Shown piece by piece: positions 2,296 to 22,004 of a DNA stretch of 32,000 nt. The stretch's first letter is position 1; each line of letters begins with the position of its first letter. The position numbers and the translations under genes were made by a program. The stretch lies in the NCBI GenBank assembly GCA_026016245.1, contig CP061211.1, positions 150,001 through 182,000 on the forward strand. The letters are read 5' to 3'. Under the pieces are notes generated by a model that made no database searches, had not been told where the DNA came from, and saw only the letters and a program-made list of their open reading frames with translations. The stretch is from Candidatus Pacearchaeota archaeon. GTDB taxonomy: Archaea; Nanobdellota; Nanobdellia; Pacearchaeales; UBA284.

Positions 2296-2994
2296 TTATA
2301 TTCTAAGATGTATCTGTTCAAAATAAGGTTTAAGTGCTTTCTGAAATTTTTTAAGCTCTTGTTTTGTATAAGGTTCTATTTTTTCATAGTGCTCGATTAG
2401 TGTGTTTTGTGGCTGGAATTGCTGTAAAGAGAATAATTTGTTTGCTTGACTTTCTTTCAGATATTGTGCTATTTCCATCAGCTTTTCTTCTGTAATGATC
2501 CCTGGCACGCAAGTAGTTCTAAACTCATAATTTTTTATTTGTTTGATGATTTCTATTGATTGTTTTATTTGCTCTATATCTATTATTCTTTGGGCGACTC
2601 TTTCATAATCATCTTGCTTTATGGTTGTTTTAATGTCCATTGCTATGTAATCCACAAGTTTGTTTTTTATTAGGGTTTGAAGCATTTCTGGATTTGAGCC
2701 ATTTGTATCTATCTTAATTAGGAATCCTAGTTCTTTGATTTTCTTGCAGAATTCTGGCAAATCATTATAGATTGTGGGCTCTCCTCCACAAATAACGACT
2801 GCATCAATGAATCTTTTTCTTTTTTCCAGATAAGAGAAAATTTCTTCTTCAGATATTGCTGGCACTTTTTTTAGCACAAGCTGGGGATTATAACAGAAAG
2901 GGCATCTAAAATTACAGCCTTGGACAAAGATTGTTGAGGAAATTTTTTTAGGATAATCTATTAAAGTAACTTTTTGAAAACCACCTATTATCAT
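2296..2994 (-). CDS. nrdG: anaerobic ribonucleoside-triphosphate reductase activating protein (radical SAM)
   Basis: Radical-SAM cluster motif CNFRCPFCYNP (CxxxCxxC) near the N-terminus, GGEP motif (VICGGEPT), about 230 aa. Lies immediately downstream of nrdD on the same strand (19-nt gap). Confidence 0.92.
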   Translation of the reverse strand: MIIGGFQKVTLIDYPKKISSTIFVQGCNFRCPFCYNPQLVLKKVPAISEEEIFSYLEKRKRFIDAVVICGGEPTIYNDLPEFCKKIKELGFLIKIDTNGSNPEMLQTLIKNKLVDYIAMDIKTTIKQDDYERVAQRIIDIEQIKQSIEIIKQIKNYEFRTTCVPGIITEEKLMEIAQYLKESQANKLFSLQQFQPQNTLIEHYEKIEPYTKQELKKFQKALKPYFEQIHLRI

Positions 2995-3013
2995 TCTTTC
3001 CTTTTTCTTTCCT

Positions 3014-6000
3014 TTAATCTTTTATAGGGATTGTTTTAAGTGTTGTATCAAAAGTTTTTCTGTCAGTGAATTCTGTTCTCTTTCCATTGTTCCATTGATC
3101 TACTGGTCGAAGATAGCCAACAACTCTAGAATAAACCTCACACTTATTTTTGCATTGCGGGCATAGGAAATGTTGTCCAAAAAAGTAGCCATGTTTGGTA
3201 CAGATGCTGAATGTTGGTGTTATAGTGAAATATGGAAGTCTAAAGTTTTCGCAAACTTTTTTTAATAGAGCCTTGATTGCTTCTTTTGATGGCATGCTCT
3301 CCCCAATAAAAGCATGAAAAACTGTTCCTCCAGTGTATTTTGTTTGTAATGGATCCTGTAGTTCTAAAGCAAGAAAAAGATCATTAGTGTAGTTAACTGG
3401 TAGATTTGTTGAGTTAGTATAATAAGGGTCAGCCCCATTTTCCACTGCAGCATTGTTAGCTACAATTATATCAGGAAATGCTTTTTTGTCTATCTTTGCT
3501 AATCTATAACTTGCTCCTTCAGCTGGCGTAGCTTCTAAATTGTAAAGATCATTTGTTTCTTTTTGATATTTTATTATTTCTCCCCTCATAAAGTCAAGAA
3601 CTGATTCAGCAAATTTCCTACCTCTTTCTGTTCCAATATCCAGATTAAATAAATTCATACAAGCTTCATTCATTCCTAATAAGCCAATAGTTGAGAAATG
3701 ATTCACCCAGTATTTATTATAAACTTTTTTTATTTCCCTCAAATAGAATTTTGCATAGGGATACAAGCCTCTGTCAGTAAATTCCTCAAGAACCTTTCTT
3801 TTTATTTCTAGACTTTCCTTTGCTATATTCATTAACTTTCCGAGTTTTTCAAAAAATTCTTCCTCGTTTTTTGTCAAATAACCTATCCTTGGCAAATTTA
3901 TTGTTACTACTCCTATTGAATTACCGCACCAGCTAACTTTTCCATTTCTTCTAACAAAGACGGTGTGATTTTTTACTTCACAACAATAGATTTTTCCTTC
4001 ATAATAAGCTTTTTTGATATTTCTTTTTCTTAGCCTATAATGTTTTGCTTTTTGAACTCCAAGAACATAAATAACCCCAGCTTTTATTTTCCTTCCTTTG
4101 ATTTGAGAAACTTTTTTCTTTTGAGATATACTTGTTCCTAGCCATCCTAATTTCATAATTATTTCCTGTAAATCATCTGCTAATCTTTTAGAAGGAGTCC
4201 AATAATTTATTTGACCAGTAATTTTTCTAACATAACCATCACCTTTTACCATCCAATCAAATAAGATTTTCAACTGTCTTTTACTTAATCTTTTAATTTC
4301 CTTTGGGATAAACTTTTCATATTTATTTCCAAATTGTCGTAAATAAGTCCATAACTGCTTATTACAAATTACAAAATTTATTGCCCTTTCTATATAATAA
4401 TTAAAAGGTAAAGAGTCTAAAACTCTTTTAATCTCTTCTTTTTTCTTTTTATTTACTTGGCTAATCACAGTCCTATAACCATGGTTTTTAGCACTTTTTT
4501 CATTATCAGTACATCCTTCAGCTAACCAGAATCCAAAGAAGCGCAGCCAATTATCCATCTCAATTTTTAAAGCATCTCGATACACCTTGTAAGGAGTTCT
4601 TCCCTGCCTTCCATATTTTGTAAATTTAATTCCAGGCAAAATAAACCATGTTGTCTCTTCTCCTCTCCAAATACCTTGTTTTGGGATACGTTGATTATTA
4701 AAATCAAAATCTTTTGCTTCTACAAACTTTCTTTTACCACTCCCTACTTGGTCTACTACCATTCGATGATTTGGGGTGACTAATAAATCCATGGATTTTG
4801 TTTTAAATTGGCACATTTCTCCTTTATGGTTATATTTGAAAAGTTTTTTTGGTTTATGCAATTCAATTTCATTATTCCTAACTAATGTAAATATCATTTC
4901 ATTTTTGGTTAAATCTTTAAAAAGTTTCCAGCCATTTTCTGTTAAAATTTCTGTTTTTTCATCATAACAACCAGTCAAAGGATTTGCTCCGAATAATCCC
5001 CCCCCTCTTTTAACAAGCTCTCTGTTATCTAACCTTAAGCGGCAACACATACTTCTCGCATCTTCTGGTTTCATATCACTATTAATGAAATTTGAAAAAT
5101 AAGGTATACCATATTTTGCTGTCATTTCCCATATTTTGTCATATTTTGGACTGTTCCATGCAAAATCTTTTGTGATGTTGTATGTGGGAATAGGAAATGT
5201 AAATACTCTATCAACATCATCACCACCAGTATAAACTTCAGTGAGAGCCTGATTAAAAATATCCATCTCTTCCTGGAAATCACCATAAGTTTCTTTCATT
5301 GGGTTTCCTCCTATAATTACTGGCTCGTTTCTCATGAATTCTGGCACTTTCAAATCAAGAGTTATATTTGTGAAAGGTGTATTTCCTGTTATGAATACCT
5401 TGCCATTTCTTCTTGCAATAACTGTTCCGTTTTCAGTATTAGGACACCAGATTGTTCCTAAGTATCTTATCTTTTTGATTTTATTTATGTAAGTATCCTT
5501 GTGTTTTATCAGCCTTAGCACATAAATGGTTTTGGTTCCAATTGTTGGTTTTCTTTCTAAAATAGTTGACCCATATCCTGCATTTGATGCAATTGCCTGT
5601 AAATCATTTAAAATGTCTATGTTAGAAGTTGCAATCTTACAATTCTCAGAGCCTTCAGCTTTCAGGTAATTATCTATAAACAATTCAGACTGACGCTGGC
5701 TCATATCTAATAGAATTTTTGGAATAAAGCTAATACTTGCTTTACTGAACCATTTATGTATTATTTTTGATGATGCAGCATTTAATCTTATTCTCTGAAC
5801 TGGTTTTCCTAAGCCATGTTGAGTATATTCAGAATACTTTAATTTGAAATGTTTTAGCAATTTTTTTATTTCTTCATAATTTTTCTTGTTTTTTATTTCT
5901 GATTGATAAATACTAACTCTATAACAGCATCTGTGTTTGCCTGGTTTTTCTATACTCCCTTCTCCAATTATCCATGCTATTAATTTAATTTGTTCATCAC

Positions 6001-7165
6001 TTACTGGAATGTCTTTCTTAGAATTTTTAGCTGCTATTGGTACAATAAAATGTGATTTTAATTTTATGACTTTTTCAATTGGTTCTAAAACATAATTATT
6101 AGTATTAAATTTTTTTCTTACGACTTTATGTCTAGGGGAAATTAATTGGTCTTGTATCCTATTTTTTAAATTATACATAACCCCTTCATATTCCTTTTTA
6201 AATACACTATTTACTTTTGTGTTTTCTATCACTTTTTTTTCTATATTGAATGTTTTTATTATCATATCTTTTTTTATTTCATTATATTTTTTCCATCCAT
6301 TAATAGTCAGTATTTCTGTATCTTCTGAAATACACTGAAATCCTACACGAGTTGGAACATTTACATTAAACATGAATTCCTGCAAAGCTTGTTTAACTTC
6401 TTTATAACCTAAACCATCATATCGAATAAATGGCGCTAAAAGAGTATCAAAGTTTGATAAAGCTTGGGCACCTGCAGCTTCTCCTTGAAGTGTATAGAAA
6501 AAATTAACAACTTGGCCTAAAGCTACTTTGAAGTGTTTTGCTGGTTTACTATCTATTTTTCCATAAACACCTTTGAATCCTGTCAAAAGCAAATCTTTAA
6601 GATCCCATCCAACACAATATGGAGCAAGAACACCTAAATCATGAACATGAAATGTTCCACTTGTGTGGGCCTCTCTTATTTCTGGGGGATAAATCTTTTT
6701 TAGCCAGTATTGTGATGTTATGAAAGAAGAGACATGATAATTAAGTCCTTGAAGAGAATAAGCCATGTTAGAATTCTCCTTGATACGCCAGTCCTGACCC
6801 GTCAGATATTCCTCTACTTTTTTTGTATTTGTCAAGAGTTCAGAAACTTTTCTTATGTCCTCGTGCTGTTTTCTGTAAAGAATGTAAGATTTGGCTGTTT
6901 CAACATAATTATTTCTCATTAAAACTCTCTCAACAACATCCTGGATACTTTCAACACTAGAGATTTGGCCAGGAGCAAGCTGGTCTTCTATTATGATAGT
7001 AACTTTATGTGCAAGAGTTTCAGCTATCCTCTTGTTTTCTATTTCATCTTTCCCAGTCTCTTTTGTAGCATTAAGTGCTTTTTCAATAGCAACAGCTATT
7101 TTTCCAAGATTGAATTCTGCGATAGAACCATCTCTTTTACGAATCTCTTTTAAAATTTTAGCCAC
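3014..7165 (-). CDS. nrdD: class III anaerobic ribonucleoside-triphosphate reductase, interrupted in frame by two inteins (extein about 715 aa)
   Basis: N-terminal ATP-cone (IRKRDGSIAEFNLGKI...YILYRKQ). Conserved CCRL motif. C-terminal Cys cluster (CTKHG...CPQCKNKC). Glycyl-radical motif RVVGYLRPV, with the Gly codon at 3116-3118. 1383 aa minus 318 and 350 intein residues gives an NrdD-sized protein. The ORF-track start is a GTG at 7163-7165. Confidence 0.97.
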   Translation of the reverse strand: MAKILKEIRKRDGSIAEFNLGKIAVAIEKALNATKETGKDEIENKRIAETLAHKVTIIIEDQLAPGQISSVESIQDVVERVLMRNNYVETAKSYILYRKQHEDIRKVSELLTNTKKVEEYLTGQDWRIKENSNMAYSLQGLNYHVSSFITSQYWLKKIYPPEIREAHTSGTFHVHDLGVLAPYCVGWDLKDLLLTGFKGVYGKIDSKPAKHFKVALGQVVNFFYTLQGEAAGAQALSNFDTLLAPFIRYDGLGYKEVKQALQEFMFNVNVPTRVGFQCISEDTEILTINGWKKYNEIKKDMIIKTFNIEKKVIENTKVNSVFKKEYEGVMYNLKNRIQDQLISPRHKVVRKKFNTNNYVLEPIEKVIKLKSHFIVPIAAKNSKKDIPVSDEQIKLIAWIIGEGSIEKPGKHRCCYRVSIYQSEIKNKKNYEEIKKLLKHFKLKYSEYTQHGLGKPVQRIRLNAASSKIIHKWFSKASISFIPKILLDMSQRQSELFIDNYLKAEGSENCKIATSNIDILNDLQAIASNAGYGSTILERKPTIGTKTIYVLRLIKHKDTYINKIKKIRYLGTIWCPNTENGTVIARRNGKVFITGNTPFTNITLDLKVPEFMRNEPVIIGGNPMKETYGDFQEEMDIFNQALTEVYTGGDDVDRVFTFPIPTYNITKDFAWNSPKYDKIWEMTAKYGIPYFSNFINSDMKPEDARSMCCRLRLDNRELVKRGGGLFGANPLTGCYDEKTEILTENGWKLFKDLTKNEMIFTLVRNNEIELHKPKKLFKYNHKGEMCQFKTKSMDLLVTPNHRMVVDQVGSGKRKFVEAKDFDFNNQRIPKQGIWRGEETTWFILPGIKFTKYGRQGRTPYKVYRDALKIEMDNWLRFFGFWLAEGCTDNEKSAKNHGYRTVISQVNKKKKEEIKRVLDSLPFNYYIERAINFVICNKQLWTYLRQFGNKYEKFIPKEIKRLSKRQLKILFDWMVKGDGYVRKITGQINYWTPSKRLADDLQEIIMKLGWLGTSISQKKKVSQIKGRKIKAGVIYVLGVQKAKHYRLRKRNIKKAYYEGKIYCCEVKNHTVFVRRNGKVSWCGNSIGVVTINLPRIGYLTKNEEEFFEKLGKLMNIAKESLEIKRKVLEEFTDRGLYPYAKFYLREIKKVYNKYWVNHFSTIGLLGMNEACMNLFNLDIGTERGRKFAESVLDFMRGEIIKYQKETNDLYNLEATPAEGASYRLAKIDKKAFPDIIVANNAAVENGADPYYTNSTNLPVNYTNDLFLALELQDPLQTKYTGGTVFHAFIGESMPSKEAIKALLKKVCENFRLPYFTITPTFSICTKHGYFFGQHFLCPQCKNKCEVYSRVVGYLRPVDQWNNGKRTEFTDRKTFDTTLKTIPIKD
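3920..4969 (-). mobile_element. intein 2 in NrdD (aa 733-1082, 350 aa) with a LAGLIDADG homing-endonuclease domain
   Basis: Starts with Cys (NPLTG|CYDEKTEILTENGWK). Block-B TPNH. LAGLIDADG motifs (FFGFWLAEGC, LFDWMVKGDGY). Ends ...RRNGKVSWCGN|S. Boundary codons checked in DNA: TGT at 4967-4969 and AAT at 3920-3922. Confidence 0.9.
5381..6334 (-). mobile_element. intein 1 in NrdD (aa 278-595, 318 aa) with a LAGLIDADG homing-endonuclease domain
   Basis: Starts with Cys (GFQ|CISEDTEILTINGWK). Block-B-like SPRH. Two LAGLIDADG motifs (LIAWIIGEGS, FIDNYLKAEGS). Ends ...RRNGKVFITGN|T. Boundary codons checked in DNA: TGT at 6332-6334 and AAT at 5381-5383. The flanks rejoin to give conserved NrdD sequence. 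Confidence 0.9.
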
Positions 7166-7175
7166 CTCCTAACTG

Positions 7176-7613
7176 TTATTTTTTCCCTAACTCTTTTATT
7201 GTTTTTCTAAAATCCCCAATATCCTCAAATTCTCTATATACAGAAGCAAATCGAATATAAGCAACTTTATCAATCTTTTTCAATTTTTTCATGACCATTT
7301 CTCCTATGATTTTGCTTGGAATTTCAGGGCCATATCCCCTGATTCTTGTCTCTATCTCTGCAACAGCCTTTTCTATCGTTTCCTGACTTACAGGCCTTTT
7401 TTCGCAAGCTTTCATCATCCCTATCAAAAGCTTCTCTCTATCAAAGGGTTCTCTTCTCTCATCTTTTTTTATTACTCTCATATTTGTCTCTATCCTTTCA
7501 TATGTGGTAAATCTCTTTTTACATTTCAAACATTCACGTCTTCTCCTAGTGATGTTTTCTGTATCTCTTTTATCCAAAACTTTTGTATTTCCAGAGCAAT
7601 AAGGACATTTCAT
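7176..7613 (-). CDS. nrdR: NrdR transcriptional repressor (zinc ribbon plus ATP-cone)
   Basis: N-terminal CPYC...CLKC zinc ribbon followed by RFTTYE. ATP-cone with the near-invariant DKVAYIRFASVYREFEDI. 145 aa. Its stop lies 10 nt upstream of the nrdD start. Confidence 0.92.
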   Translation of the reverse strand: MKCPYCSGNTKVLDKRDTENITRRRRECLKCKKRFTTYERIETNMRVIKKDERREPFDREKLLIGMMKACEKRPVSQETIEKAVAEIETRIRGYGPEIPSKIIGEMVMKKLKKIDKVAYIRFASVYREFEDIGDFRKTIKELGKK

Positions 7614-7632
7614 TTTTGATTTATTTTTAAAA

Positions 7633-7648
7633 ACACAATATCTTGTGT
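7633..7648. promoter_or_regulatory. NrdR box 1 (16-bp palindrome ACACAATATCTTGTGT)
   Basis: Matches the NrdR-box consensus as I recall it (acaCwAtATaTwGtgt) at 15 of 16 positions, with perfect ACACAA/TTGTGT arms. Lies 20-35 nt upstream of the nrdR ATG. Confidence 0.7.
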
Positions 7649-7664
7649 CCTCTTTTAATATAAA

Positions 7665-7680
7665 ACTACATATAGTATGT
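7665..7680. promoter_or_regulatory. NrdR box 2, degenerate (ACTACATATAGTATGT)
   Basis: About 11 of 16 matches to the consensus, AT-rich core conserved. Centre is 32 bp from the centre of box 1, which fits the roughly three-helical-turn spacing of tandem NrdR boxes. It directly abuts the predicted TATA box. Confidence 0.45.
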
Positions 7681-7690
7681 TATTTATAAA
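7681..7690 (-). promoter_or_regulatory. TATA box of the nrdR-nrdD-nrdG operon (minus strand reads AAAG-TTTATAAATA)
   Basis: The same 10-mer TTTATAAATA preceded by AAG recurs upstream of two other genes (22721, 23871). Here it is 77 nt from the ATG, implying a 5' UTR of about 45 nt that contains NrdR box 1. Confidence 0.5.
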
Positions 7691-7794
7691 CTTTGTGGTT
7701 TTAAAATTCAAAGGTTTAAAAGAATATTGTTTTATTTTGTATATTTTATAATGTGATAAAACTTATAAAAATCTTTGTATGATAGACCTATATT

Positions 7795-8715
7795 ATGAGA
7801 TTTCCAATTACAACGGAAAAAACTGAATTTGAGTCAACTAATTTTGTAAATTTATCGGAAGCATTGCAAGAATCTTTACAAGATATGGATATAATTAACC
7901 CCAAAACTTATGAAGCTAAACAAAAATATTTTGATTTGCCTATTGAAGAAGGGCTCATGTTAAAATGTTTATCTAAATTTTTTGATCTTACTAGTAATTT
8001 TCATGTTGGCTGCTCTGCTGATATAAGACCACCAAGTTTTGCTTTTTATATGTTTAAAGGTTCGGCTGACACAAGAGAAGGTGCATTTAATTTTTATTAT
8101 CGAAGAATGCTTAAATTAAGTACTTTTTTAGAAAATACTTCTTTTAGAAATGAAAGAGGTGTCAGAGATCTAGAATCACTTGCAAGGGCTTATAATCAAA
8201 GAGAGAATTATGGAGAAAAAATAGGTATCAGTTGGAACGGTTGGACTGGAGATGAAGATAAACAATTTGGCAAAACTGGTTTTTCTGGTGCTAATATTAG
8301 CCTAGAATTTGATAGTAATTTTTTAAAAGAATTTGATGGAGTTGATGATTTAAGTAAAGAACCTTGGGCTTTCAAAAGCCCGCTATATGGAAAATGTACT
8401 CCTTTCTATCAGCTTGCAAAGAACACAAAATTAGCAGAAATAATTAAAGAATATCATAAACAAAAAGAAAAATTAAATCATTATCACCCCCAATTTATAT
8501 TATCTTATAATCTATCTATATTAAACTATAGTATTGATGATGTTTTATTTGGTATTTTTCAAGTTGCGAATAAAATCTTTTCAACTAAAGAAGATATAGA
8601 AACAAATAAAAATATAATAATAGAAAGCTGTTCAAGTTATATCCCAGCTCCAGAAAACTTTGATTTTTATAAAGAAAATCACCTATATTTTAAGCTTGGT
8701 GGTGGGAACAAATAA
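7795..8715 (+). CDS. hypothetical protein
   Basis: 306-codon ORF transcribed divergently from nrdR. TATA-like TTATAAAA at 7763-7770, 32 nt before the ATG. No motif recognised. Confidence 0.55.
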   Translation: MRFPITTEKTEFESTNFVNLSEALQESLQDMDIINPKTYEAKQKYFDLPIEEGLMLKCLSKFFDLTSNFHVGCSADIRPPSFAFYMFKGSADTREGAFNFYYRRMLKLSTFLENTSFRNERGVRDLESLARAYNQRENYGEKIGISWNGWTGDEDKQFGKTGFSGANISLEFDSNFLKEFDGVDDLSKEPWAFKSPLYGKCTPFYQLAKNTKLAEIIKEYHKQKEKLNHYHPQFILSYNLSILNYSIDDVLFGIFQVANKIFSTKEDIETNKNIIIESCSSYIPAPENFDFYKENHLYFKLGGGNK

Positions 8716-8716
8716 T

Positions 8717-9670
8717 TCAAACAAATCCAAGATAGAATTGAATAAAAATAAAGAATATATAAAGTAACAAGAGAGCTATTCCTTCCATTACATATAACTT
8801 AGAGCCACTGTGCAGGAAAGTTGCAAAGAGGAAAGTTAACAAGATTAAAAATATCGCGCTCACAAGAACAAGCATTAAGTTAGCAGTAATAGGAAAGATT
8901 AAAGCTGTAATTCCAAGAACAAGAGTTGAGTTTACGACAACAGAGCCAAAAAGATCACCAAGGGCCATTTCTCCGTAGCCAAGTTGAGCAGCTCTAGCTC
9001 CAAAAGCAAGTTCTGGTAAAGTGGTTCCTATTGCTATAAGAAATAAACCTATAATGATTGGAGGCAACATTAATTCTAGAGATAAAACAGTGGCGTACTT
9101 AACAACAAAATAAGAACTTGCAAAAAGAAAAATCAAGGAAATAACAAATATTATAGAATAAAGTATTACTTTTTCCCTTTTTATTCTTGTTTCATTTTCT
9201 AAAGGCTTTTTGAATTTTTTTCTTCTTTTCAAAATTCTCCAAGAATATAAACAGAAAGCTGCTATTAGAATTATGCCATCAATCCAGTTTAATGAACCAT
9301 CTATAAAGAATAAGACTAGAGGAAGAATTACTATTGGAATAAGAAATAAAGAACTTTTTTTAATATCTTTTTTCTTAATTTTTATTCCTCTAGCAAGAAG
9401 GATCATTATTCCTCCAATAAGTGCAAAGTTAGCTATGTTTGCGCCAATAACGTTTCCTAAACTAAGGGCAGTGTTTTGAGTAAGGGCAGAACTTATTCCA
9501 ACAAAAAGTTCTGGCAAGCTTGTGGCTATTGCTATGATTATGAAAGCTGCTGTAAACTCACTAATACGCAAAAATACTGAAATTTTTCCAATACTTTTAA
9601 CAAGATAAGTTCCACTACCAAAAAGAATAGCACATGAAAGAACAAAAAATAAAATATTTAACCATAACAT
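8717..9670 (-). CDS. Ca2+/cation antiporter (CaCA / YrbG-type Na+/Ca2+ exchanger family)
   Basis: Polytopic membrane protein with two alpha-repeat signatures: ATSLPELFVG...GNVIGANIANFALIGG and GTTLPELAFG...GDLFGSVVVNSTLVLG. Start set at ATG 9668-9670 (MLWLNILFF), 2 nt after the GGDEF stop. An upstream in-frame ATG at 9688 is the alternative. Confidence 0.85.
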   Translation of the reverse strand: MLWLNILFFVLSCAILFGSGTYLVKSIGKISVFLRISEFTAAFIIIAIATSLPELFVGISSALTQNTALSLGNVIGANIANFALIGGIMILLARGIKIKKKDIKKSSLFLIPIVILPLVLFFIDGSLNWIDGIILIAAFCLYSWRILKRRKKFKKPLENETRIKREKVILYSIIFVISLIFLFASSYFVVKYATVLSLELMLPPIIIGLFLIAIGTTLPELAFGARAAQLGYGEMALGDLFGSVVVNSTLVLGITALIFPITANLMLVLVSAIFLILLTFLFATFLHSGSKLYVMEGIALLLLYIFFIFIQFYLGFV

Positions 9671-9672
9671 TT

Positions 9673-10311
9673 TTATTCTATAACACAAACCTTATTTTTT
9701 CCTTTTTCTTTTGCTTTGTAAAGAGCAATGTCAGCCTGATCTAACATATATTGTATTCCTGCTTTTGTTAATTTGGATATGCCCATGCTTACTGTAACTT
9801 TTTCAAACCCTTTTTCAATCCTTTTACTAATAGCTCTTATTTTTGTTTCTGCAATCTTTTTTCTTATTCTTTCAGCTATTTCTCTTGCTTTTTTTAGTTT
9901 CGTATTTGGAAGCACGATAATAAATTCTTCTCCTCCATAACGGGCAACAAAATCTTCTTTTCGCGTCAGCCTTTGAATTGTTTTTGTTGCAGCTTTAAGA
10001 GCCATGTCTCCTTGTAAATGACCATAAGTGTCATTATATTGTTTAAAATTATCAATATCCATCATTATTACAGCTAGAGGCAGGCCTTGTCTTATTGATT
10101 TTTCCATCTCCCTGCCAAGAAGCTCATCAAGAATTCTTCTGTTGAATACACCAGTTAGATGATCTTTTGTTGCATATGAATAAAGCTCATTAAACAGTCT
10201 TCCAAGAGATCGAGCTTCTGGTTTTGGCTTTTTTATTTCACTCCTAATCTGTTTGCTTAATTGCTCTAGCGCAGCATATCTTTTTTCTTTCTTTCCTTTC
10301 CTCTTTTTCAT
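9673..10311 (-). CDS. stand-alone GGDEF-domain protein (predicted diguanylate cyclase), no sensor or TM domain
   Basis: Full GGDEF-domain signature: DHLTGVFNRR, DIDNFKQYNDTYGHLQGD, active site RYGGEEF (nt 9922-9936). RxxD I-site (RKED) lies exactly 5 residues upstream of GGEEF. C-terminal ADIALYKAKEKGKNKV. A basic helical segment of about 50 aa is the only N-terminal extension. Confidence 0.9.
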   Translation of the reverse strand: MKKRKGKKEKRYAALEQLSKQIRSEIKKPKPEARSLGRLFNELYSYATKDHLTGVFNRRILDELLGREMEKSIRQGLPLAVIMMDIDNFKQYNDTYGHLQGDMALKAATKTIQRLTRKEDFVARYGGEEFIIVLPNTKLKKAREIAERIRKKIAETKIRAISKRIEKGFEKVTVSMGISKLTKAGIQYMLDQADIALYKAKEKGKNKVCVIE

Positions 10312-10319
10312 TCTTTTTC

Positions 10320-12965
10320 TTACCTATTAAATATCTTTGGCTTTAAATATTTAAATAGTTCTCCAACAACAAGAATTGATAATGAGATTAAAAAGATTCC
10401 TGAAAATTCTTTAAGTGTTAATGAAGAAGTTCCGAAAAGTGTCTGTAAAAAGGGTGTTTGAACAATCAGGATTTGCAATATGAATGATATTATTATGGCT
10501 CCAAACAGTAGCCAGTTAGCCTTTAGTTTGTAGAGAGACTGTCTGAATGACCTAAAGTTTATTGCATTAAATCCTTCAAAGAATACAAGACCAGTGAATG
10601 CAACTGTCTGAAGTTTTATTGCATCTAAAGCACTTATCATGTTTATAGATAAGAGGATGCCTAGAGTAATTAGTATAGCAAGTAAAAACCAGATTACAAC
10701 AATTCCAGATGTGAATAGTTTAGCTTCTGTTGGTTTTCTTTTCATTACATCTGCCTCAGGATGTTCAAGACTTAATGTTAAGGCTATTATCCCATCACTC
10801 ACGAGATTTATCCATAATATTTGTATAGGTAATAAAGCAAGCATAGTTGGCCAGCCAAGTTGGGAGGCAAAAAGTAGAGCAAAAACAATTATAAAAATCT
10901 CGGCAAGGTTACTGCTTAAAAGATAGTATGAGAATTTCTTTATATTATCAAAAACACGACGCCCTTCTTTGACTGCTTTTGCTATAGAAGCAAAATTATC
11001 ATCTGTGAGAATCATGTCAGAAACATCTCTGGTTACATCTGTGCCTCTTATACCCATTGCTACTCCGATGTCAGCTCTTTTAAGAGCAGGAGCATCATTA
11101 ACCCCATCACCAGTCACAGCTACAATTTCTTTTTGTTCCTTCAGTATGTTTATAATCCTTAACTTTTGTTCTGGAGTTGTCCTTGCAAAAATTACAGTCT
11201 CCTTTATTTTAGATTTTAACTCTTCATCACTCATCTTCTCAATCTCTCTACCAACAACTGCTTCGCCAACCAAACCTATTTGTTTAGCCACTGCTATAGC
11301 TGTCAGCTTAGCATCACCAGTAATCATCTTAACTGCTATCCCTGCTTCCTTTGTTGCCTTAATTGCTTCTTTAACTTCAGGTCTTGGAGGATCTAACATC
11401 CCTTGAAAACCCACAAAAATAAGTTCAGATTCAGCGTCTGTTTGTGTAAATTTTTTATTGACAGGCTTATAAGCAAAACCCAAAACTCTCAAGCCTTGTG
11501 AAGCCATTTCTTCATATACAATTAGAAGCTCTTTTCTTCTTCTTGCCACAAGCCTCAGAGCTGTATTTCCAACAAGTTCTTTTGAACATTTCTCAAGAAT
11601 TACTTCTGGAGAACCTTTTACATAACTTATATTCTGAAAATCTGTCTTTCTAACAATGGACATCATTTTTCTTTTGGAAGTAAAAGCAAATTCCTTTACT
11701 CTAGGTTCTTTTTCAGTTAGAATTTTTTTATCAAAACCTAAATTAGAAGCTATTCTAATAAGAGCTGCTTCAGTAGGATCACCAATAATTTCTTCTTCAT
11801 CATCTATTTTTTCAAGGCGAGCATTATTACATAAACAGTTTATCTTAAGAAGCAGTCTGAGAGCTTTGTCCTTTACTTTTCCTTCCCCTATATTTTCTGC
11901 CTTGATTATTTTGTTATCATAATATAAATTAGTGACTGTCATTTTTTCTTCAGTTATTGTTCCTGTTTTATCTGTGCAGATTACTGTTACTCTGCCAAGA
12001 GTTTCAGCAGCAGGTAATTTTCTTATCAAACTTTTAACTCTATACATTCTTCGAACTGCTATTGCTAAACCAATAGTGATTACAGCTGGCAATCCTTCAG
12101 GAACTGCAGCAACTGCTAAACTTATAGCAGTAAAAAACATTTGAACTTTATCAAGACCAAAATAAATACCAAGTCCCGCTATAACTGCAACAAGAATTAT
12201 TACAATGACTCCAATTTTCTTAGCAAAACTATCGAGCCTGATCTGTAGAGGGGTTCTTTCTGCTCTAGTTTTTTGAACCATGCTAGCTATTTTACCAAAT
12301 TCAGTTTGCATGGCTGTGGCAACAACAAGGGCCTTACAAGAGCCTCTAACAACAGAAGTTCCTTTATAAAGCATGTTGGATCTATTATAAATTTCTGTTT
12401 CCACATCAAGAATCTTGGTTTCTTTATCAACAGGCGTGCTTTCTCCTGTCAAAACAGCCTCATTTGTCTGTAAATCACTAGTTTCTATAATCCTAGAATC
12501 AGCAACAACTTTATCACCTTCTTGTAAAATCAAAATGTCACCTGGAACAATCTCACTAGCAGGAATTTCCTTCAAAATACCAGAACGAAGAACTTTAGCT
12601 TTGGTTACTAACATACCTCTTAAAGCCTGGATTGATTTCTCAGCCTTATAGTTCTGAAAAAAACCAATACCAGCATTCAGAATAACAATACCAAGAATCA
12701 CATACATATCAATCCAATGAGCAACAAATGCTGAAACAATAGCAGCAAGTATAAGAAGAATAACAAAAAAAGATTTAAATTGTTCAAATAAAATTCTTAA
12801 AGGTTCAAACCTTCTAATCTTTCTAATTTCATTCTTGCCATATTCCTCAAGTCTTTTAGTAGCTTCTTTATCATTAAGTCCAGTAAATTTACTTTTCAGT
12901 TTTTCGATTGCTTTATCAGAACTTAAAGTATGCCAATAAATACTTTCCTTTACCTCTTTTTGCAT
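10320..12965 (-). CDS. P-type cation-transporting ATPase, P2 (Ca2+-ATPase-like)
   Basis: 881 aa. N-terminal cation-ATPase motif, TGES actuator motif (LTGESTPV), phosphorylation site CTDKTGTIT, PEGLPAVITIGLA in M4, hinge motif TGDGVNDAPALKRADIGVAMG. Ten predicted TM helices. Confidence 0.93.
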   Translation of the reverse strand: MQKEVKESIYWHTLSSDKAIEKLKSKFTGLNDKEATKRLEEYGKNEIRKIRRFEPLRILFEQFKSFFVILLILAAIVSAFVAHWIDMYVILGIVILNAGIGFFQNYKAEKSIQALRGMLVTKAKVLRSGILKEIPASEIVPGDILILQEGDKVVADSRIIETSDLQTNEAVLTGESTPVDKETKILDVETEIYNRSNMLYKGTSVVRGSCKALVVATAMQTEFGKIASMVQKTRAERTPLQIRLDSFAKKIGVIVIILVAVIAGLGIYFGLDKVQMFFTAISLAVAAVPEGLPAVITIGLAIAVRRMYRVKSLIRKLPAAETLGRVTVICTDKTGTITEEKMTVTNLYYDNKIIKAENIGEGKVKDKALRLLLKINCLCNNARLEKIDDEEEIIGDPTEAALIRIASNLGFDKKILTEKEPRVKEFAFTSKRKMMSIVRKTDFQNISYVKGSPEVILEKCSKELVGNTALRLVARRRKELLIVYEEMASQGLRVLGFAYKPVNKKFTQTDAESELIFVGFQGMLDPPRPEVKEAIKATKEAGIAVKMITGDAKLTAIAVAKQIGLVGEAVVGREIEKMSDEELKSKIKETVIFARTTPEQKLRIINILKEQKEIVAVTGDGVNDAPALKRADIGVAMGIRGTDVTRDVSDMILTDDNFASIAKAVKEGRRVFDNIKKFSYYLLSSNLAEIFIIVFALLFASQLGWPTMLALLPIQILWINLVSDGIIALTLSLEHPEADVMKRKPTEAKLFTSGIVVIWFLLAILITLGILLSINMISALDAIKLQTVAFTGLVFFEGFNAINFRSFRQSLYKLKANWLLFGAIIISFILQILIVQTPFLQTLFGTSSLTLKEFSGIFLISLSILVVGELFKYLKPKIFNR

Positions 12966-12985: not shown

Positions 12986-12997
12986 GATTAAAAATTT
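12986..12997 (-). promoter_or_regulatory. TATA-like box for the ATPase-GGDEF-antiporter operon
   Basis: Minus strand reads AAATTTTTAATC, about 31 nt upstream of the ATPase ATG (12965). This spacing matches the other predicted leaderless promoters in the window. Confidence 0.4.
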
Positions 12998-13000
12998 AAC

Positions 13001-13417
13001 TCAATAATTATTTATTCTAGAAAGATTCTTGTTTAACACTATTGGATTCATTGCTATTAATTCATCTTCGAAAATACTCTCTGGTATTGGATTAAACAGA
13101 AAAATCTTTTTTCCAAGTTCAAAAGCTTTAAAGATTTCTAGAAATGTTGCTCCGCCAATATAATTTCTTTGGCCATTTTTCTCAAAATTTAAAACAAGGA
13201 CTGCATCACTATTTTTTACTTTTTCATTTTGCAATCGAATCATCTCTGATTTCCATTTTATATGAGCTTGCCTTCCTTTTTTCTTTTCTTCCTCTTCTCT
13301 AAAAGGATCCTCATAACTATTAGGAAAAGTCAATTCATGTCCTACTTTCTTAAGTTGTTCTTGTATACAAGGTATTTGATGATAAAAATGCTTGCTACAA
13401 CAAATAAATATTTTCAT
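13001..13417 (-). CDS. small protein resembling the nucleoside 2-deoxyribosyltransferase-like superfamily (tentative)
   Basis: 138 aa. MKIFICCS start, then ...DAVLVLN...NYIGGATFLEIFKAFELGKKIFLFN. This resembles the Rossmann-like pattern of that superfamily. Pattern-level resemblance only. Confidence 0.35.
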   Translation of the reverse strand: MKIFICCSKHFYHQIPCIQEQLKKVGHELTFPNSYEDPFREEEEKKKGRQAHIKWKSEMIRLQNEKVKNSDAVLVLNFEKNGQRNYIGGATFLEIFKAFELGKKIFLFNPIPESIFEDELIAMNPIVLNKNLSRINNY

Positions 13418-13517
13418 AAAAAAATACAGAACTTAAAATATATAAAGATTTCTTAACTCAATGCAAATATTTTTATATGATTTTTTCTCTTTAAAGATGT
13501 AAATAAAAGAGGTGAAG

Positions 13518-15269
13518 ATGGTAAGTTTTGAAGAGATTATCGCAGCTGCTACAGGGAGCGTGTCTTCTATAGGAAATATTATATCTCAATCTCCAGATAG
13601 CCAGTCAATTCTTATTAGTATTGGAATTGTTATTATTATTTCTGCTATTCTTGCTATTATACTTAAATTATTGAAGCAGGAAATAATCCCTGCCTATATT
13701 TTAGCTGGTTTGATTATTGGTCCTCTTGTTTTAGGACTTGTTAAAGATACATCAGTAATTTCAGCCCTAGCAGAGATAGGCATAGCTTTCTTGTTGTTTG
13801 TAGCAGGAATAGAAATTTCATTTAAAAAATTAAAAGAGACTAGTACTGGTTCATTGGTAGCTGGTTTCTTTCAAATCATAATTATTGGTGTTGCAACATT
13901 TTTCATTTCAACAGCTCTTGGTTTTGGAAGAATAGAATCTTTTTATCTTGCTCTTGCCCTTTCTTTCAGCTCAACTATTCTTGTGATAAAGCTTTTTGCA
14001 GATAAATATGAGCTGAATACTTTACATGCTAGAATTGCGATAAGCATTTTATTGATACAGGACATTGTTGCTATCTTTGCTCTAGCCATCTTATCAGGAA
14101 GATTCACACATATTTTTGTTTATCTTGCCTTATTAAAAGTCTTCTTACTGCTCCTAATAGCTTTCTTTTTAAGCAAAACAATTCTCAAGCCTCTATTCAA
14201 TTTTGCTTCTAGATCCACAGAGCTTTTATTCATAGTTTCCATAGCTCTTGTCTTCTTATTTTCTGCTCTTAGCCATATCTTAGGACTTTCAATTATTATT
14301 GGAGCGTTTATTGGTGGTTTATCTCTAGCAAATCTTCGCTACAAAACAGAAATTGTATCAAAAATTCGCCCTCTTAGAGACTTTTTTGCAATAATATTTT
14401 TTGTCTCGCTTGGAATGTTACTAACAACATTCAATTTCAGAGAATTGATAGTTCCTTTGGTAGTTCTTCTTGCTATAGTTTTGATAGCTAAACCATTCAT
14501 AACTGCCTTTTTTATCAGAATAGCAGGTTATGGACAGAGAACAAGTGCTTTAACTGGATTTGGCCTCGCGCAAATATCTGAATTTTCCTTAATACTAATA
14601 CTTCAGGGATTTGTTTTAGGAATTGTGACACAGAAAACTTTCAGTCTTGTTGTTTTAGTAGCTATGATAACAATGGCTCTCACACCTTACCTAATAAGAG
14701 GTAGTCTAACTTTCTACTCAAGATCTATAGGAGCTATAAAAATTATAGAAAAACTTCCAACTGGCAAGGAAAAGACAAGATATAAATTTCAGAAAAAGAA
14801 AACTCTCTTACTTGTAGGTGCTCACAGAATGGGTTCTGTTTTTATCAAAAAGTTGGAAAGATTAAAACATAGAATCCTTGTTGTAGATTTTAATCCAGAA
14901 ATAATTAAAGCTCTAGAAAGAAAAAATATTTCTGCTATCTATGGGGATATAGCAAATACAGAAATTTTCAATCATCTTCCTCTAGCCAAACTTAAAGTAG
15001 TAATATCAACTGTTCCTAATAAGGAGGACAATATTCTCGTAATCAGATATTTCAAAAAGCTTCTCCCAAAAGTATTTGTGACAGTAACAGCGCAAAGAAT
15101 AGATGATGCTCTTGAGATGTATAAACTAGGAGCAGATTATGTAATAAGCCCAATGATAGTCAGTGCAGAACATGCTATAGAAAATATAATAAAACTTAAC
15201 AAGTGGCAATTCAGAAAACTAAAGAAAAAGCAAATAAGATATCTCAGAGATCTAAATAAAACTTTATAA
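13518..15269 (+). CDS. Kef-type K+(Na+)/H+ antiporter (CPA2) with a C-terminal TrkA-N/RCK domain
   Basis: About 12 TM segments typical of the Na+/H+ exchanger family, then the Rossmann-like stretch LLLVGAHRMGSVFIKKLERLKHRILVVDFNPE. Start moved to ATG 13518 because the track start, GTG 13512, lies inside a strong Shine-Dalgarno AGAGGTGA (13508-13515). Confidence 0.88.
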   Translation: MVSFEEIIAAATGSVSSIGNIISQSPDSQSILISIGIVIIISAILAIILKLLKQEIIPAYILAGLIIGPLVLGLVKDTSVISALAEIGIAFLLFVAGIEISFKKLKETSTGSLVAGFFQIIIIGVATFFISTALGFGRIESFYLALALSFSSTILVIKLFADKYELNTLHARIAISILLIQDIVAIFALAILSGRFTHIFVYLALLKVFLLLLIAFFLSKTILKPLFNFASRSTELLFIVSIALVFLFSALSHILGLSIIIGAFIGGLSLANLRYKTEIVSKIRPLRDFFAIIFFVSLGMLLTTFNFRELIVPLVVLLAIVLIAKPFITAFFIRIAGYGQRTSALTGFGLAQISEFSLILILQGFVLGIVTQKTFSLVVLVAMITMALTPYLIRGSLTFYSRSIGAIKIIEKLPTGKEKTRYKFQKKKTLLLVGAHRMGSVFIKKLERLKHRILVVDFNPEIIKALERKNISAIYGDIANTEIFNHLPLAKLKVVISTVPNKEDNILVIRYFKKLLPKVFVTVTAQRIDDALEMYKLGADYVISPMIVSAEHAIENIIKLNKWQFRKLKKKQIRYLRDLNKTL

Positions 15270-19960: not shown

Positions 19961-21055
19961 TTAGATTGCTAATTTTATCTTTCCTGTTCTATAAAGTTCC
20001 ATAAATATTAGTAAGTATTCAAGAATAATTGGACCGACTATAAGGCCTATTGGACCTATCATCACTAAACCTCCTAACATACCTATTAATACTATTAAAG
20101 GATTTATTCTTGCTCTCTTGCCTACAATAAATGGTTTGACAATATCATCAATAGTGCTTACAATGACAAAACCAAAAACCATCATTAATATACCACTAGT
20201 AACATCCCCCGCAGCAATCATAATCAATCCAAGAGGGAACCAGACAAGCCAAGAACCTACAAAAGGCAGGATTGATAATAAGGTAGCAAGAATTGTGAAG
20301 AATAAAGGAGATGGTGCCCCAAAGATATAGAAACCAATACCAGCAGTAATACCTTGGATTATTCCAATAATAATCTGTCCATAAATAGTTGCATGAGCTA
20401 CATCTTGGGATCTCTTTATTAACTTTTCATTTACTTCAGAACTAAAAGGAAGAATTTCTCTAACATATTTCAATATGCTTTTGCCCTCTTTCAAGAAATA
20501 AAACATGACAAAAAAAGTTATGAAAAGTTGGATGAAAAATTGAGGGGCATTTGTCATAAACTGGCCTACTTGATTTATGAAGCTGTTTGTTAGAGAGACT
20601 AGACCTTGTTGTAATGTAAGTGTAATTTGTCTGGCTAATTCAGGAGAATCAGGGAAAATTGTCAAGATAGCTTTGTTAACAAGATCAAAGATATCAAGTT
20701 TCTGGATTGACATATACAAATTAAAGGCTTCTCTGACTGTAATCTGGGCTATGAAATAAACACCGAGAGCAAGAACAGCTATTACAAGGAGACAGATTAT
20801 TAAAGAGCTTATTGTAGACTTCTTTATCAGTTTATTGAGAAGTTTGTAGGGTTTGAAAAATATGAAAGCAAGTACAATACCAAAAAGTAGAGCTGCTATA
20901 TATGGTTTAATTATCAAAAAAGACAATACTGCAAGAACTGCTGTGATAACTATTGCTATGACTCTTCTTGATGCATGCCTATTCCCCATCATTGTCTCTT
21001 TTCTAGGTTTCATTTTCTTTACTTTTACTGCTCTCTTTTTACCTCTTTTTACCAT
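19961..21055 (-). CDS. AI-2E family transporter (PerM/UPF0118-like permease)
   Basis: 364 aa with about 8 TM segments. Basic N-terminus, and C-terminal conserved region DDIVKPFIVGKRARINPLIVLIGMLGG typical of the family. TATA-like box 30 nt upstream of ATG 21055. Confidence 0.75.
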   Translation of the reverse strand: MVKRGKKRAVKVKKMKPRKETMMGNRHASRRVIAIVITAVLAVLSFLIIKPYIAALLFGIVLAFIFFKPYKLLNKLIKKSTISSLIICLLVIAVLALGVYFIAQITVREAFNLYMSIQKLDIFDLVNKAILTIFPDSPELARQITLTLQQGLVSLTNSFINQVGQFMTNAPQFFIQLFITFFVMFYFLKEGKSILKYVREILPFSSEVNEKLIKRSQDVAHATIYGQIIIGIIQGITAGIGFYIFGAPSPLFFTILATLLSILPFVGSWLVWFPLGLIMIAAGDVTSGILMMVFGFVIVSTIDDIVKPFIVGKRARINPLIVLIGMLGGLVMIGPIGLIVGPIILEYLLIFMELYRTGKIKLAI

Positions 21056-21116
21056 TAAAATATTAATGCCAAAGAGTTTTATAAACTTTTTTAAAGTAAA
21101 GAGCCTTGAGAGAAAA

Positions 21117-22004
21117 ATGAGGAAACCAATAGTAGCTGGACAATTCTATTCAGCAGATAAAACAAATCTGGACAAAGAAATAGAATCTTCTTTTAGGCAT
21201 AGGCTAGGACCAGGGATGCCAAAAGTTCCACTTAAAGAAAAGAGGATTTTTGGAATTATAGTGCCACATGCTGGCTATGTTTATAGTGGATCTTGCGCTT
21301 CTCATGCTTACAAAGAACTTGCAGAGTTAAACAAGAAGAGCTTTCCAGACACTTTCATTCTTCTCGGACCTAATCATAGTGGTTATGGAAAGGCTTTCTT
21401 TTCTCTAACATTTGAAGATTTTGAAACCCCTTTAGGGATTATAAAAAATCATACTGAACTTGGAACTAAAATAATGGAACAGACTTCTCATTTAGGATTG
21501 CAAGAAGACAAGCAAGCACATAATTATGAACATAGTTTAGAAGTACAGTTACCTTTTCTGCAGTTTGTATCAAAGATAGCTAAAAAAGAAATAAAAATTA
21601 TTCCAATAATAATTTCCACGCAAGAATACAGTAAGCTTGTGGCTGTAGGAAGGAAAATTGGTGAAATTTGTAAGGAAAAAAATGTTTGTGTTATTGCAAG
21701 CAGTGATTTTACACATTATGGCCAGAATTATGGATTTATTCCTTTTCCAGCAAGTGAGGCAAAAACAAGGCTGAAGGATTTAGATAGAAAGTCAATTAAT
21801 CATATTTTAAAATTAGAGAGCAAGGCTTTTTATGAAGAAGCGACAAAGACAACAATTTGTGGAACAGGTGCTATTGTTGTTGCAATAGAAGCATGTAAAA
21901 AGATGGGGTCAAAAAAAGCTTCTCTGCTTAAGTATTACACAAGCGGGGATATAGCAAAGAATTATAGTAATGCTGTTGGTTATGCTAGTTTTATTTTTGA
22001 TTAG
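21117..22004 (+). CDS. MEMO1 / AmmeMemoRadiSam system protein B family protein
   Basis: MRKPIVAGQFYSADK..., VPHAGYVYSG, LGPNH, HSLEVQLPFLQ, SSDFTHYG are family signatures. Start moved from 20853 to ATG 21117 because the upstream 88 codons overlap the permease gene on the opposite strand and are not part of the family. Confidence 0.88.
   Translation: MRKPIVAGQFYSADKTNLDKEIESSFRHRLGPGMPKVPLKEKRIFGIIVPHAGYVYSGSCASHAYKELAELNKKSFPDTFILLGPNHSGYGKAFFSLTFEDFETPLGIIKNHTELGTKIMEQTSHLGLQEDKQAHNYEHSLEVQLPFLQFVSKIAKKEIKIIPIIISTQEYSKLVAVGRKIGEICKEKNVCVIASSDFTHYGQNYGFIPFPASEAKTRLKDLDRKSINHILKLESKAFYEEATKTTICGTGAIVVAIEACKKMGSKKASLLKYYTSGDIAKNYSNAVGYASFIFD

Follow-up and report, generated by a model that had tools for sequence, protein, structure and literature searches.

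The 32,000-nucleotide stretch of Candidatus Pacearchaeota DNA analysed here (the window) encodes on its minus strand a stand-alone GGDEF diguanylate cyclase of 212 residues (9673–10311). The gene is the second of three on that strand. It follows an 881-residue P2A-type (Ca2+-ATPase-like) P-type ATPase (10320–12965), the first gene of the transcription unit, and precedes a 317-residue Na+/Ca2+ exchanger of the CaCA family (NCX_Mj/YrbG-like; 8717–9670, counted from its ATG). Our central finding is that the cyclase is genuine, vertically inherited, ancient within Pacearchaeota, intact and under purifying selection. The explanation that we favour, and that taken as a whole seems to us reasonably probable, is that the protein belongs to a Pacearchaeota-specific family descended from one ancient acquisition of a bacterial GGDEF gene and that, by analogy with bacterial homologues, it would act as a stalk-dimerised, product-inhibited enzyme making cyclic di-GMP (c-di-GMP) under mainly transcriptional control.

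Authenticity and descent of the cyclase

In GenBank, a protein entered as 'GGDEF domain-containing protein [Candidatus Pacearchaeota archaeon]' matches the cyclase at 100% identity; its gene lies in the middle of a 710,724-bp contig. In the Logan assembly of run DRR463595, a contig of 9,166 bp is 100% identical to positions 2350–11515 of the window and spans both operon junctions. Continuity across the ATPase/GGDEF and GGDEF/CaCA borders is thus confirmed by identical junctions in a second assembly. The GC content of the gene is 0.332 and that of the window 0.312. The archaeal hallmark genes that the original prediction had placed on the same contig, namely those for a class I CCA-adding enzyme, aIF5B, S6e and, at the 3' end, aIF2-gamma with its zinc ribbon, were all found again, and these markers identify the host as a genuine archaeon.

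Some 53 clusters of proteins of 207–266 residues resemble the cyclase at 46–91% identity, after which the scores drop to bacterial REC-, GAF- and PAS-GGDEF proteins. Set against the 67 closest bacterial GGDEF sequences, the family is monophyletic in 95 of 100 neighbour-joining bootstraps; one sequence, L093, was left out of this clade because its placement is uncertain. The ratio of non-synonymous to synonymous substitution rates (dN/dS) is 0.13–0.15, similar to that of neighbouring genes, and the closest pair, with a dS of 0.42, is unsaturated.

Gene neighbourhoods were compared in 25 distinct lineages, whose loci are denoted by L numbers. The cyclase lies near aIF5B, S6e and aIF2-gamma in L002 (on a 692-kb contig) and L005; near the CCA enzyme and a Kef antiporter in the window, L114, L091, L009, L007, L097 and L098; and in a context of TatD, diphthine synthase, IleRS and the proteasome in L004, L092, L101–L104, L108 and L110. 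The neighbours in L093 are L24e, S28e and L7Ae. Across the related archaeal genomes surveyed, the cyclase is therefore kept in at least 25 lineages, with the three-gene order present in only some of them. In a scan of GTDB genomes, the patterns FKxYNDxYGH and ARYGGEEF became saturated with bacterial GGDEF proteins, and the 80 loci listed were all bacterial. L113, a high-GC bacterial GAF-GGDEF, was a false positive of the metagenome pattern scan and was excluded. A scan of viral contigs with the N-terminal motif gave no match, which argues that the family is not phage-borne.

One family locus has unusual surroundings. In L106 (9095–12624), P0037, on an 86-kb JGI contig, is followed by a signal-peptide β-barrel protein and an 814-residue repeat protein; the contig could be chimeric or the lineage mis-binned, or a transfer could have occurred.

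Architecture of the protein

The GGDEF domain is complete and looks active, as the original prediction had maintained. The profile PF00990 matches residues 48–207 over profile positions 2–161 of 161 (E=9.3e-48; 162.5 bits against a cut-off of 23.8), and TIGR00254 from NCBIfam scores 171.9 bits against a cut-off of 37.4. The substrate and metal motif DIDNFKQYNDTYGHLQGD (10006–10059, minus strand) contains the metal ligand D85 together with N93 and D102, which serve guanine recognition. Translation places the allosteric product-inhibition site (I-site) RKED, R117–D120 (9952–9963, minus strand), five residues before the active-site GGEEF, G126–F130 (9922–9936, minus strand), in agreement with the earlier reading and with a spacing identical to that of R359–D362 in PleD. 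A constant offset of 242, which the alignment ranges of the PDB matches fit, equates D85, N93, D102, R117, D120 and G126–F130 with D327, N335, D344, R359, D362 and G368–F372 of PleD.

Two details of the original assignment needed correction. The motif RYGGEEF is present, but positions 9922–9936, to which it had been assigned, encode GGEEF only, and the full motif spans 9922–9942. The GTP-specific state was correctly called, since the residue concerned is an invariant Asp, but it had been attributed to the Asp of NDTYGH, which is D94 (PleD D336). Specificity depends instead on D102, which ends HLQGD and is equivalent to PleD D344, a position occupied by Ser or Thr in Hypr enzymes (PMC9140294). 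In a 36-sequence alignment of the family (mean column identity 54%), D85, D87, N93, D94, G97, H98, D102, R124, GGEEF, K201 and N206 are invariant, and the R and D of the I-site are kept in at least 90% of members. Both guanine-specific residues, Asn93 and Asp102, are thus present throughout the alignment, with no Hypr-type Ser or Thr.

The AlphaFold2 (AF2) model of the cyclase has an overall pLDDT (predicted local distance difference test) of 81.5, with values of 80–97 in the GGDEF domain. It superposes on the c-di-GMP-bound GGDEF structure 3IGN with a root-mean-square deviation of 1.6 Å over 155 columns at 42% identity (Foldseek E=5e-16), and also on DosC, DgcB, WspR and PleD, all structures of GGDEF domains with c-di-GMP or a GTP analogue bound. 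PleD, WspR and Marinobacter 3IGN have the same fold, at 39–42% identity over the domain. Canonical bacterial GGDEFs share with the archaeal protein the metal, guanine and phosphate ligands (here D85, N93, D102, GGEEF and K201), the spacing of the RxxD I-site and the helix before DxLTG, which in them acts as a dimerisation stalk. Unlike PleD, WspR and 3IGN, the Pacearchaeota cyclase has no REC or other input domain, resides in a DPANN host and has an archaeal promoter with a B recognition element (BRE) and TATA box. Pfam revealed no PAS, GAF, REC or other sensor domain in it, and no transmembrane segment was found (maximum 19-residue hydropathy 0.75), so the description of a cyclase with no known input domain stands.

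The N-terminal module (residues 1–47; 10171–10311, minus strand) consists in the AF2 model of a Lys-rich tail, a helix spanning residues 3–26, a break at KPKP and a stalk helix, residues 33–47, that runs into DxLTG. The original prediction had described a basic helical N-terminus. Basic and helical it is, with 15 Lys or Arg among the first 40 residues, but it is not featureless, because it includes a helical stretch of about 35 residues that is specific to the family and conserved in it, with L15, E25, K28, P31, L36, F40, L43 and Y44 as conserved positions in the 36-sequence alignment. The Lys-rich tail is of variable length, reaching about 60 residues in some members. In DgcR, the counterpart of residues 36–47 in the alignment is the stalk helix before DxLTG, and residues 14–76 align weakly with the stalk of SiaD. 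A search of the first 50 residues against 1.84 billion representative proteins returned two marginal matches, the segment being too short and basic to be informative. The conserved N-terminal helix of about 30 residues with its Lys-rich tail is peculiar to the Pacearchaeota family and matches nothing else.

The locus, its history and the link to Ca2+ transport

The coordinates, lengths and spacings of the open reading frames (ORFs) proved to be as first reported. The ATPase stop codon lies 8 nt from the ATG of the cyclase gene and the cyclase stop codon 2 nt from the ATG of the CaCA gene, whose longest ORF would begin instead at TTG 9688. An archaeal BRE/TATA-like promoter element, GAGTTAAATTTTTAAT (12987–13002, minus strand), ends 21 nt upstream of the ATPase ATG in a leaderless-type layout. 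The TATA-like box that had been proposed for the three genes is real: its core, G.GTTAAATTTTTA, is invariant and keeps a constant distance to the first ATG in six lineages (the window, L114, L091, L009, L115 and L007). In L115, it precedes ATPase and CaCA genes with no GGDEF gene between them; in L007, where the ATPase is absent, it stands directly before the GGDEF gene. Cyclase genes that open their unit have a TTTTTTAA-type box 25–30 nt upstream of the ATG. The 8-nt and 2-nt gaps and the conserved promoter support the reading of ATPase, GGDEF and CaCA genes as one transcript from a leaderless-type archaeal promoter, in keeping with the earlier placement of the cyclase inside a three-gene unit with a promoter of its own. 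As the middle cistron, the cyclase would be made whenever the Ca2+-extrusion genes are expressed.

Other first genes of the window have similar boxes. A TTTWTAAA-type box lies 25–35 nt upstream of the ATG, in leaderless fashion, at the genes at 7795, 13001, 19961, 21991, 22750, 25950 and 29420. Promoter inspection found no TATA boxes at internal genes, and those at, for example, 777, 3014, 15264 and 18425 have a GAGGT/GGAG Shine-Dalgarno motif instead, a contrast that provides a usable rule for calling operons in this genome.

The ATPase has a complete set of Pfam domains (Cation_ATPase_N, E1-E2_ATPase, Cation_ATPase and Cation_ATPase_C). Its best NCBIfam scores, 683 bits for the PMR1-type TIGR01522 (cut-off 798) and 635 bits for the SERCA-type TIGR01116 (cut-off 703), are both below threshold, and its presumed specificity for Ca2+ derives from these resemblances. 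The CaCA protein contains two Na_Ca_ex repeats (Pfam, E=1.2e-44) and aligns with NCX_Mj structures over residues 2–308 (E=4.5e-25), including both (G/A)T(S/T)LPE α-repeat motifs; its score with TIGR00367, 158.8 bits, is below the cut-off of 179.65.

Homologues of the ATPase (49–100% identity) and of the CaCA protein (52–100%) come, where named, from Pacearchaeota, Woesearchaeota, Aenigmatarchaeota or Nanoarchaeota, and no bacterial name occurs among the best 120 of either. Several small contigs carry both genes. In L115/L116, the ATPase gene is followed after a 33-nt gap by CaCA-NrdD-NrdG, with the same promoter and no cyclase. We conclude from the DPANN-only named homologues and the operon lacking GGDEF that the ATPase and CaCA exchanger are a native DPANN pair, which refutes the suggestion that the operon was acquired en bloc from a bacterium. 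Only the GGDEF gene among the three has bacterial nearest relatives, and, the transporters being native, it was inserted between them, into a pre-existing DPANN ATPase-CaCA-NrdD block, an arrangement that is dispensable for the family.

A tree calculated with full-length columns resolves four groups, A (83% bootstrap), B (98%), C (94%) and D (87%), and unites A and B with 96%. Group A (the window, L114, L091, L009/L096, L007, L095, L097 and L098) has the order Kef / [ATPase]-GGDEF-[CaCA]-NrdR-RNR, in which RNR denotes ribonucleotide reductase genes and the bracketed genes are not always present. Group B (L002 and L005; L099 is too short to judge) has LGT / GGDEF-CaCA-NrdD. In the 14 lineages of groups C and D, the cyclase is divergent from TatD/diphthine synthase genes, which stand beside it in half of the family. 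The compact three-gene form is confined to the window and L091. In L114, whose cyclase is 91% identical, a gene for a 601-residue heparinase II/III-like protein separates ATPase and GGDEF genes, and in L009/L096 a GT2 glycosyltransferase gene separates GGDEF and CaCA genes. L007, L095, L097 and L098 keep the cyclase with neither ATPase nor CaCA at the locus. Of about 19 informative lineages, 6 have a CaCA gene after the cyclase and 4 an ATPase gene before it. The cyclase is the constant element and the transporters are variable; the Ca2+ link is facultative and lineage-specific.

These observations bear directly on the possibility that the locus is a dedicated Ca2+-coupled module, with the cyclase tied physically or allosterically to the ATPase, the CaCA exchanger or both, so that c-di-GMP synthesis would be set by Ca2+ flux or the transporters would be gated by c-di-GMP. 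The tight spacing and shared conserved promoter speak for such a coupling, as does the order GGDEF-upstream-of-CaCA, which is kept down to 56% protein identity (the window, L114, L091, L009, L002 and L005), and no A or B lineage is without a cation transporter (one or more of Kef, ATPase and CaCA) beside the cyclase. The Kef gene of the window (13512–15269, plus strand) encodes by Pfam a CPA2 cation/H+ antiporter with a TrkA_N (RCK) domain and is transcribed divergently; it lies upstream likewise in L114, L091, L009, L007, L097 and L098. There is also a precedent in the control of cation transporters by c-di-AMP (PMC10249747); no other cyclic dinucleotide is established in archaea (PMC10249747, PMC12699388). 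In those systems (DacA/CdaA with KtrA, CpaA and KhtT; DacZ in Haloferax), the synthase is likewise tied to cation transporters, including a CPA2 antiporter with RCK, but the enzyme fold and the nucleotide are different, and the tie seen here is one of gene proximity in half of the family.

Against the module stands, first, the tree: because A and B form one clade, all of the adjacencies can derive from one event, in which the cyclase gene entered an ATPase-CaCA block already present, rather than from independent association. Both transporters have been lost from the locus in the four group A lineages named above, and the 14 lineages of groups C and D have no transporter nearby; in one of these, an ATPase homologue is most likely on the 162,650-bp contig of the cyclase, but not adjacent to it. 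Unrelated genes, the GT2 gene of L009 and the heparinase-like gene of L114, have come between the supposed partners. The transporters themselves are devoid of any extra regulatory domain, Kef having TrkA_N only and no RCK_C, and Pfam detected no RCK_C, CBS or USP receptor domains in the neighbouring proteins. The local arrangement is real, but coupling of cyclic-dinucleotide synthesis to Ca2+ flux, one of the two readings offered by the original prediction, is thus not a property of the family, and we consider a dedicated module unlikely.

Between the conserved promoter and NrdR lies a hot spot for insertions, occupied in L009 by genes for a GT2 glycosyltransferase and a methyltransferase (6638–7372 and 8393–9166), in L114 by the heparinase II/III-like gene (6194–7999) and in the window by an unassigned 306-residue ORF (7795–8715). 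A GT2 gene beside a GGDEF gene recalls c-di-GMP-regulated polysaccharide synthases, though it occurs in one lineage only. Within groups C and D, a DUF763 protein is encoded directly beside the cyclase in two lineages (L110, 2808–3161, where the gene overlaps the cyclase stop codon; L004, 4885–5970), and in L092 a histone-deacetylase-family gene (6660–7481) overlaps the cyclase stop. These neighbours are possible functional partners of the cyclase.

Proposed mechanism, further features and significance

In the mechanism that we propose, two monomers would pair through their N-terminal helices and stalk (residues 3–47), as bacterial homologues suggest, bringing two GTP-loaded GGDEF domains together. 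Condensation would proceed with Mg2+ held by D85 and E128/E129; as the guanine would be read by N93 and D102, the expected product is c-di-GMP, which would limit output by binding at the RKED I-site. With no sensor domain present, control would be mainly transcriptional, possibly supplemented by a partner acting on the conserved N-terminal helices as SiaC does on SiaD.

SiaD of the SiaABCD system of Pseudomonas aeruginosa (PDB 7E6G) is the closest parallel for this scheme. It is likewise sensor-less, with nothing but short N-terminal helices and a stalk before its I-site-bearing GGDEF domain, and its activity requires a dimer that forms through the stalk and that the partner protein SiaC stabilises (PMC8457831). 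The structural match to 7E6G reaches the N-terminal helices (query residues 14–210), although the N-terminal part of the archaeal protein is about half as long. P0054, a close bacterial relative of the archaeal family, is found in a SiaD-SiaB-SiaC-SiaA-type operon. Membership of the SiaD type itself (NF038266) was considered and rejected: the score is 163.5 bits against an equivalog cut-off of 290, and only profile positions 83–252 are matched. No SiaA (HAMP-PP2C), SiaB or SiaC was found near archaeal members at the loci examined. With the score below the cut-off and no Sia partners nearby, SiaD may serve as a working model for the mechanism, not as the family of the archaeal protein.

Several points weigh against the proposed scheme. 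The enzymatic product, the dimerisation mode and the co-transcription of the cyclase are inferred, the last from gap sizes and promoter position; the Shine-Dalgarno-like motif of the GGDEF gene is weak (GGT), and the N-terminal helices are modelled with moderate confidence (pLDDT 53–70). In archaea, c-di-GMP is undetected and undescribed, and its cyclases are regarded as almost exclusively bacterial (PMC10249747). No Rfam family, c-di-GMP riboswitches included, reached its gathering score in the window. No EAL, HD-GYP or PilZ domain was found in the ORFs of the window, and neither these domains nor a c-di-GMP riboswitch were seen in the annotated flanks of 12 related lineages; these cover less than 5% of each genome, so that this result weighs neither way.

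Some of the same facts could mean that the domain is conserved for a purpose other than c-di-GMP signalling in vivo. The protein might yield a different product, either pppGpG or a mixed dinucleotide, act as a regulatory subunit that binds GTP or c-di-GMP, or take part in interactions with a bacterial host or partner. A turnover enzyme or receptor was not seen in any sequence examined (the window and the flanks of related loci), Pacearchaeota genomes are small (near-complete contigs of 0.69–0.71 Mb), c-di-GMP has never been detected in archaea (PMC10249747, PMC8646023), and some GGDEF domains do act otherwise, that of GdpP being an ATPase (cited in PMC8646023). All residues for catalysis and guanine selection are nevertheless invariant and under strong purifying selection, whereas degenerate, non-catalytic GGDEFs normally lose GG(D/E)EF. 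The specificity position is Asp and not the Ser or Thr of Hypr enzymes (PMC9140294), and the conserved I-site implies that c-di-GMP is bound as a product. We think a different role improbable for these reasons.

A bolder extension of the c-di-GMP-making reading is that Pacearchaeota possess a minimal c-di-GMP circuit, the first in Archaea, in which the output of one sensor-less cyclase is set together with Ca2+/cation-extrusion genes and the receptors are non-canonical, the ATPase, the CaCA exchanger and the RCK-bearing Kef being candidates. We hold this to be quite improbable. If it were true, c-di-GMP would take the role in ion homeostasis that c-di-AMP has elsewhere.

The Zn-ribbon and ATP-cone protein NrdR (7176–7613, minus strand) and the intein-containing NrdD downstream of it (3014–7165, minus strand), both assigned by Pfam, form the conserved downstream frame of the locus. 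In all informative group A and B lineages, NrdR and/or RNR genes lie within 3.3 kb downstream of the cyclase on the same strand. The NrdR proteins of Listeria and Streptomyces bind c-di-AMP with a dissociation constant of about 3 µM (PMC12051234). A link to deoxyribonucleotide supply, with the ATP-cone of NrdR as cyclic-dinucleotide receptor, could be imagined on these grounds, but ATP-cones are adenine-specific and c-di-AMP does not promote DNA binding by NrdR (PMC12051234), RNR genes are not nearby in groups C and D, and the order ATPase-CaCA-NrdD exists without a cyclase. We therefore judge the proximity to be inherited synteny and the link very unlikely.

Finally, bacterial contamination, chimeric assembly or very recent non-functional transfer, which specialists' concern over archaeal GGDEF hits (PMC5847659, PMC10086821) and the bacterial-looking neighbours in L106 might suggest, is excluded for practical purposes by the identical junctions in two assemblies, the position of the gene with native GC in the middle of a 710-kb contig, the occurrence of orthologues among archaeal core genes in 25 or more lineages, which come from many samples and many assemblers, the archaeal-type promoters wherever the cyclase is first in its unit, the monophyly of the family and a dN/dS of about 0.14.

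Other features of the window lie outside this argument. The region between the Kef and ATPase genes contains a lineage-specific insertion (12996–13462, minus strand) with an ORF, orf138 (13001–13417), that matches nothing in Pfam or NCBIfam. A perfect 10-bp direct repeat, ATTGAGTTAA, is found at its two ends (12996–13005 and 13453–13462) and regenerates the GAGTTAA half of the promoter element. The ORF is missing from L009, L091 and L114, whose intergenic sequence is otherwise colinear. NrdD has 1383 residues, compared with about 700 in L002, L005 and L009; Pfam places Intein_splicing and LAGLIDADG domains between two NRDD segments, and two insertions of the Cys...HN type suggest two inteins with remnants of homing endonucleases. 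A full bacterial-type DnaG primase (Zn-ribbon, DNAG_N and Toprim; 25950–27599, minus strand) is encoded on this archaeal contig, and together with the NrdR repressor illustrates the many bacterial-type genes in this DPANN lineage. The ORFs of an AI-2E-family transporter (19961–21055, minus strand) and a Memo-like protein (20853–22004, plus strand) would overlap in antisense by about 200 nt if the longest ORF, with a TTG start, were used; with the Memo domain starting at residue 92, translation probably begins further downstream.

Archaeal GGDEF proteins have been mentioned before. A single example was known to Galperin et al., who raised the question of contamination for regulators of bacterial type found in archaeal bins (PMC5847659). 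In Römling's words, GGDEF presence 'needs to be confirmed in archaeal contigs' (PMC10086821). Braun et al. reported BLAST hits numbering over 300, many of them from Asgard or DPANN assemblies, but did not analyse them (PMC8646023); the Pacearchaeota proteins are presumably among these hits. That c-di-GMP is still treated as undescribed in archaea (PMC10249747, PMC5847659, PMC10086821) agrees with the original prediction. Its further claim that the system is undescribed holds in that our literature search on Pacearchaeota or DPANN and diguanylate cyclases found no specific description, but GGDEF hits in DPANN metagenome-assembled genomes had already been noted in passing (PMC8646023). The earlier examples, Methanocella arvoryzae CAJ37382, a REC protein with a degenerate GGDEF in 'Ca. 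Micrarchaeum' and the BLAST hits, are single sequences or uncurated counts of questioned authenticity (PMC5847659, PMC10086821), whereas the Pacearchaeota family is intact, monophyletic, syntenic with archaeal core genes and under selection. The gene itself had been annotated before, and there had been hints that it exists; the present analysis contributes evidence of its authenticity, its antiquity in Pacearchaeota, its intactness, the selection acting on it and the history of its insertion.

The cyclase is a known kind of enzyme in an unexpected domain of life, and for one archaeal order the question of authenticity is answered: by context, promoter, composition and descent, the gene is archaeal. 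Whether any archaea use c-di-GMP thereby becomes a direct experiment on a soluble protein of 212 residues, and genomes of 0.7–1 Mb with a single sensor-less cyclase offer a small gene set in which new types of receptor may be sought. The locus also shows how a bacterial signalling gene was domesticated, through insertion into a native Ca2+-transporter operon and retention after the transporters had left the locus.

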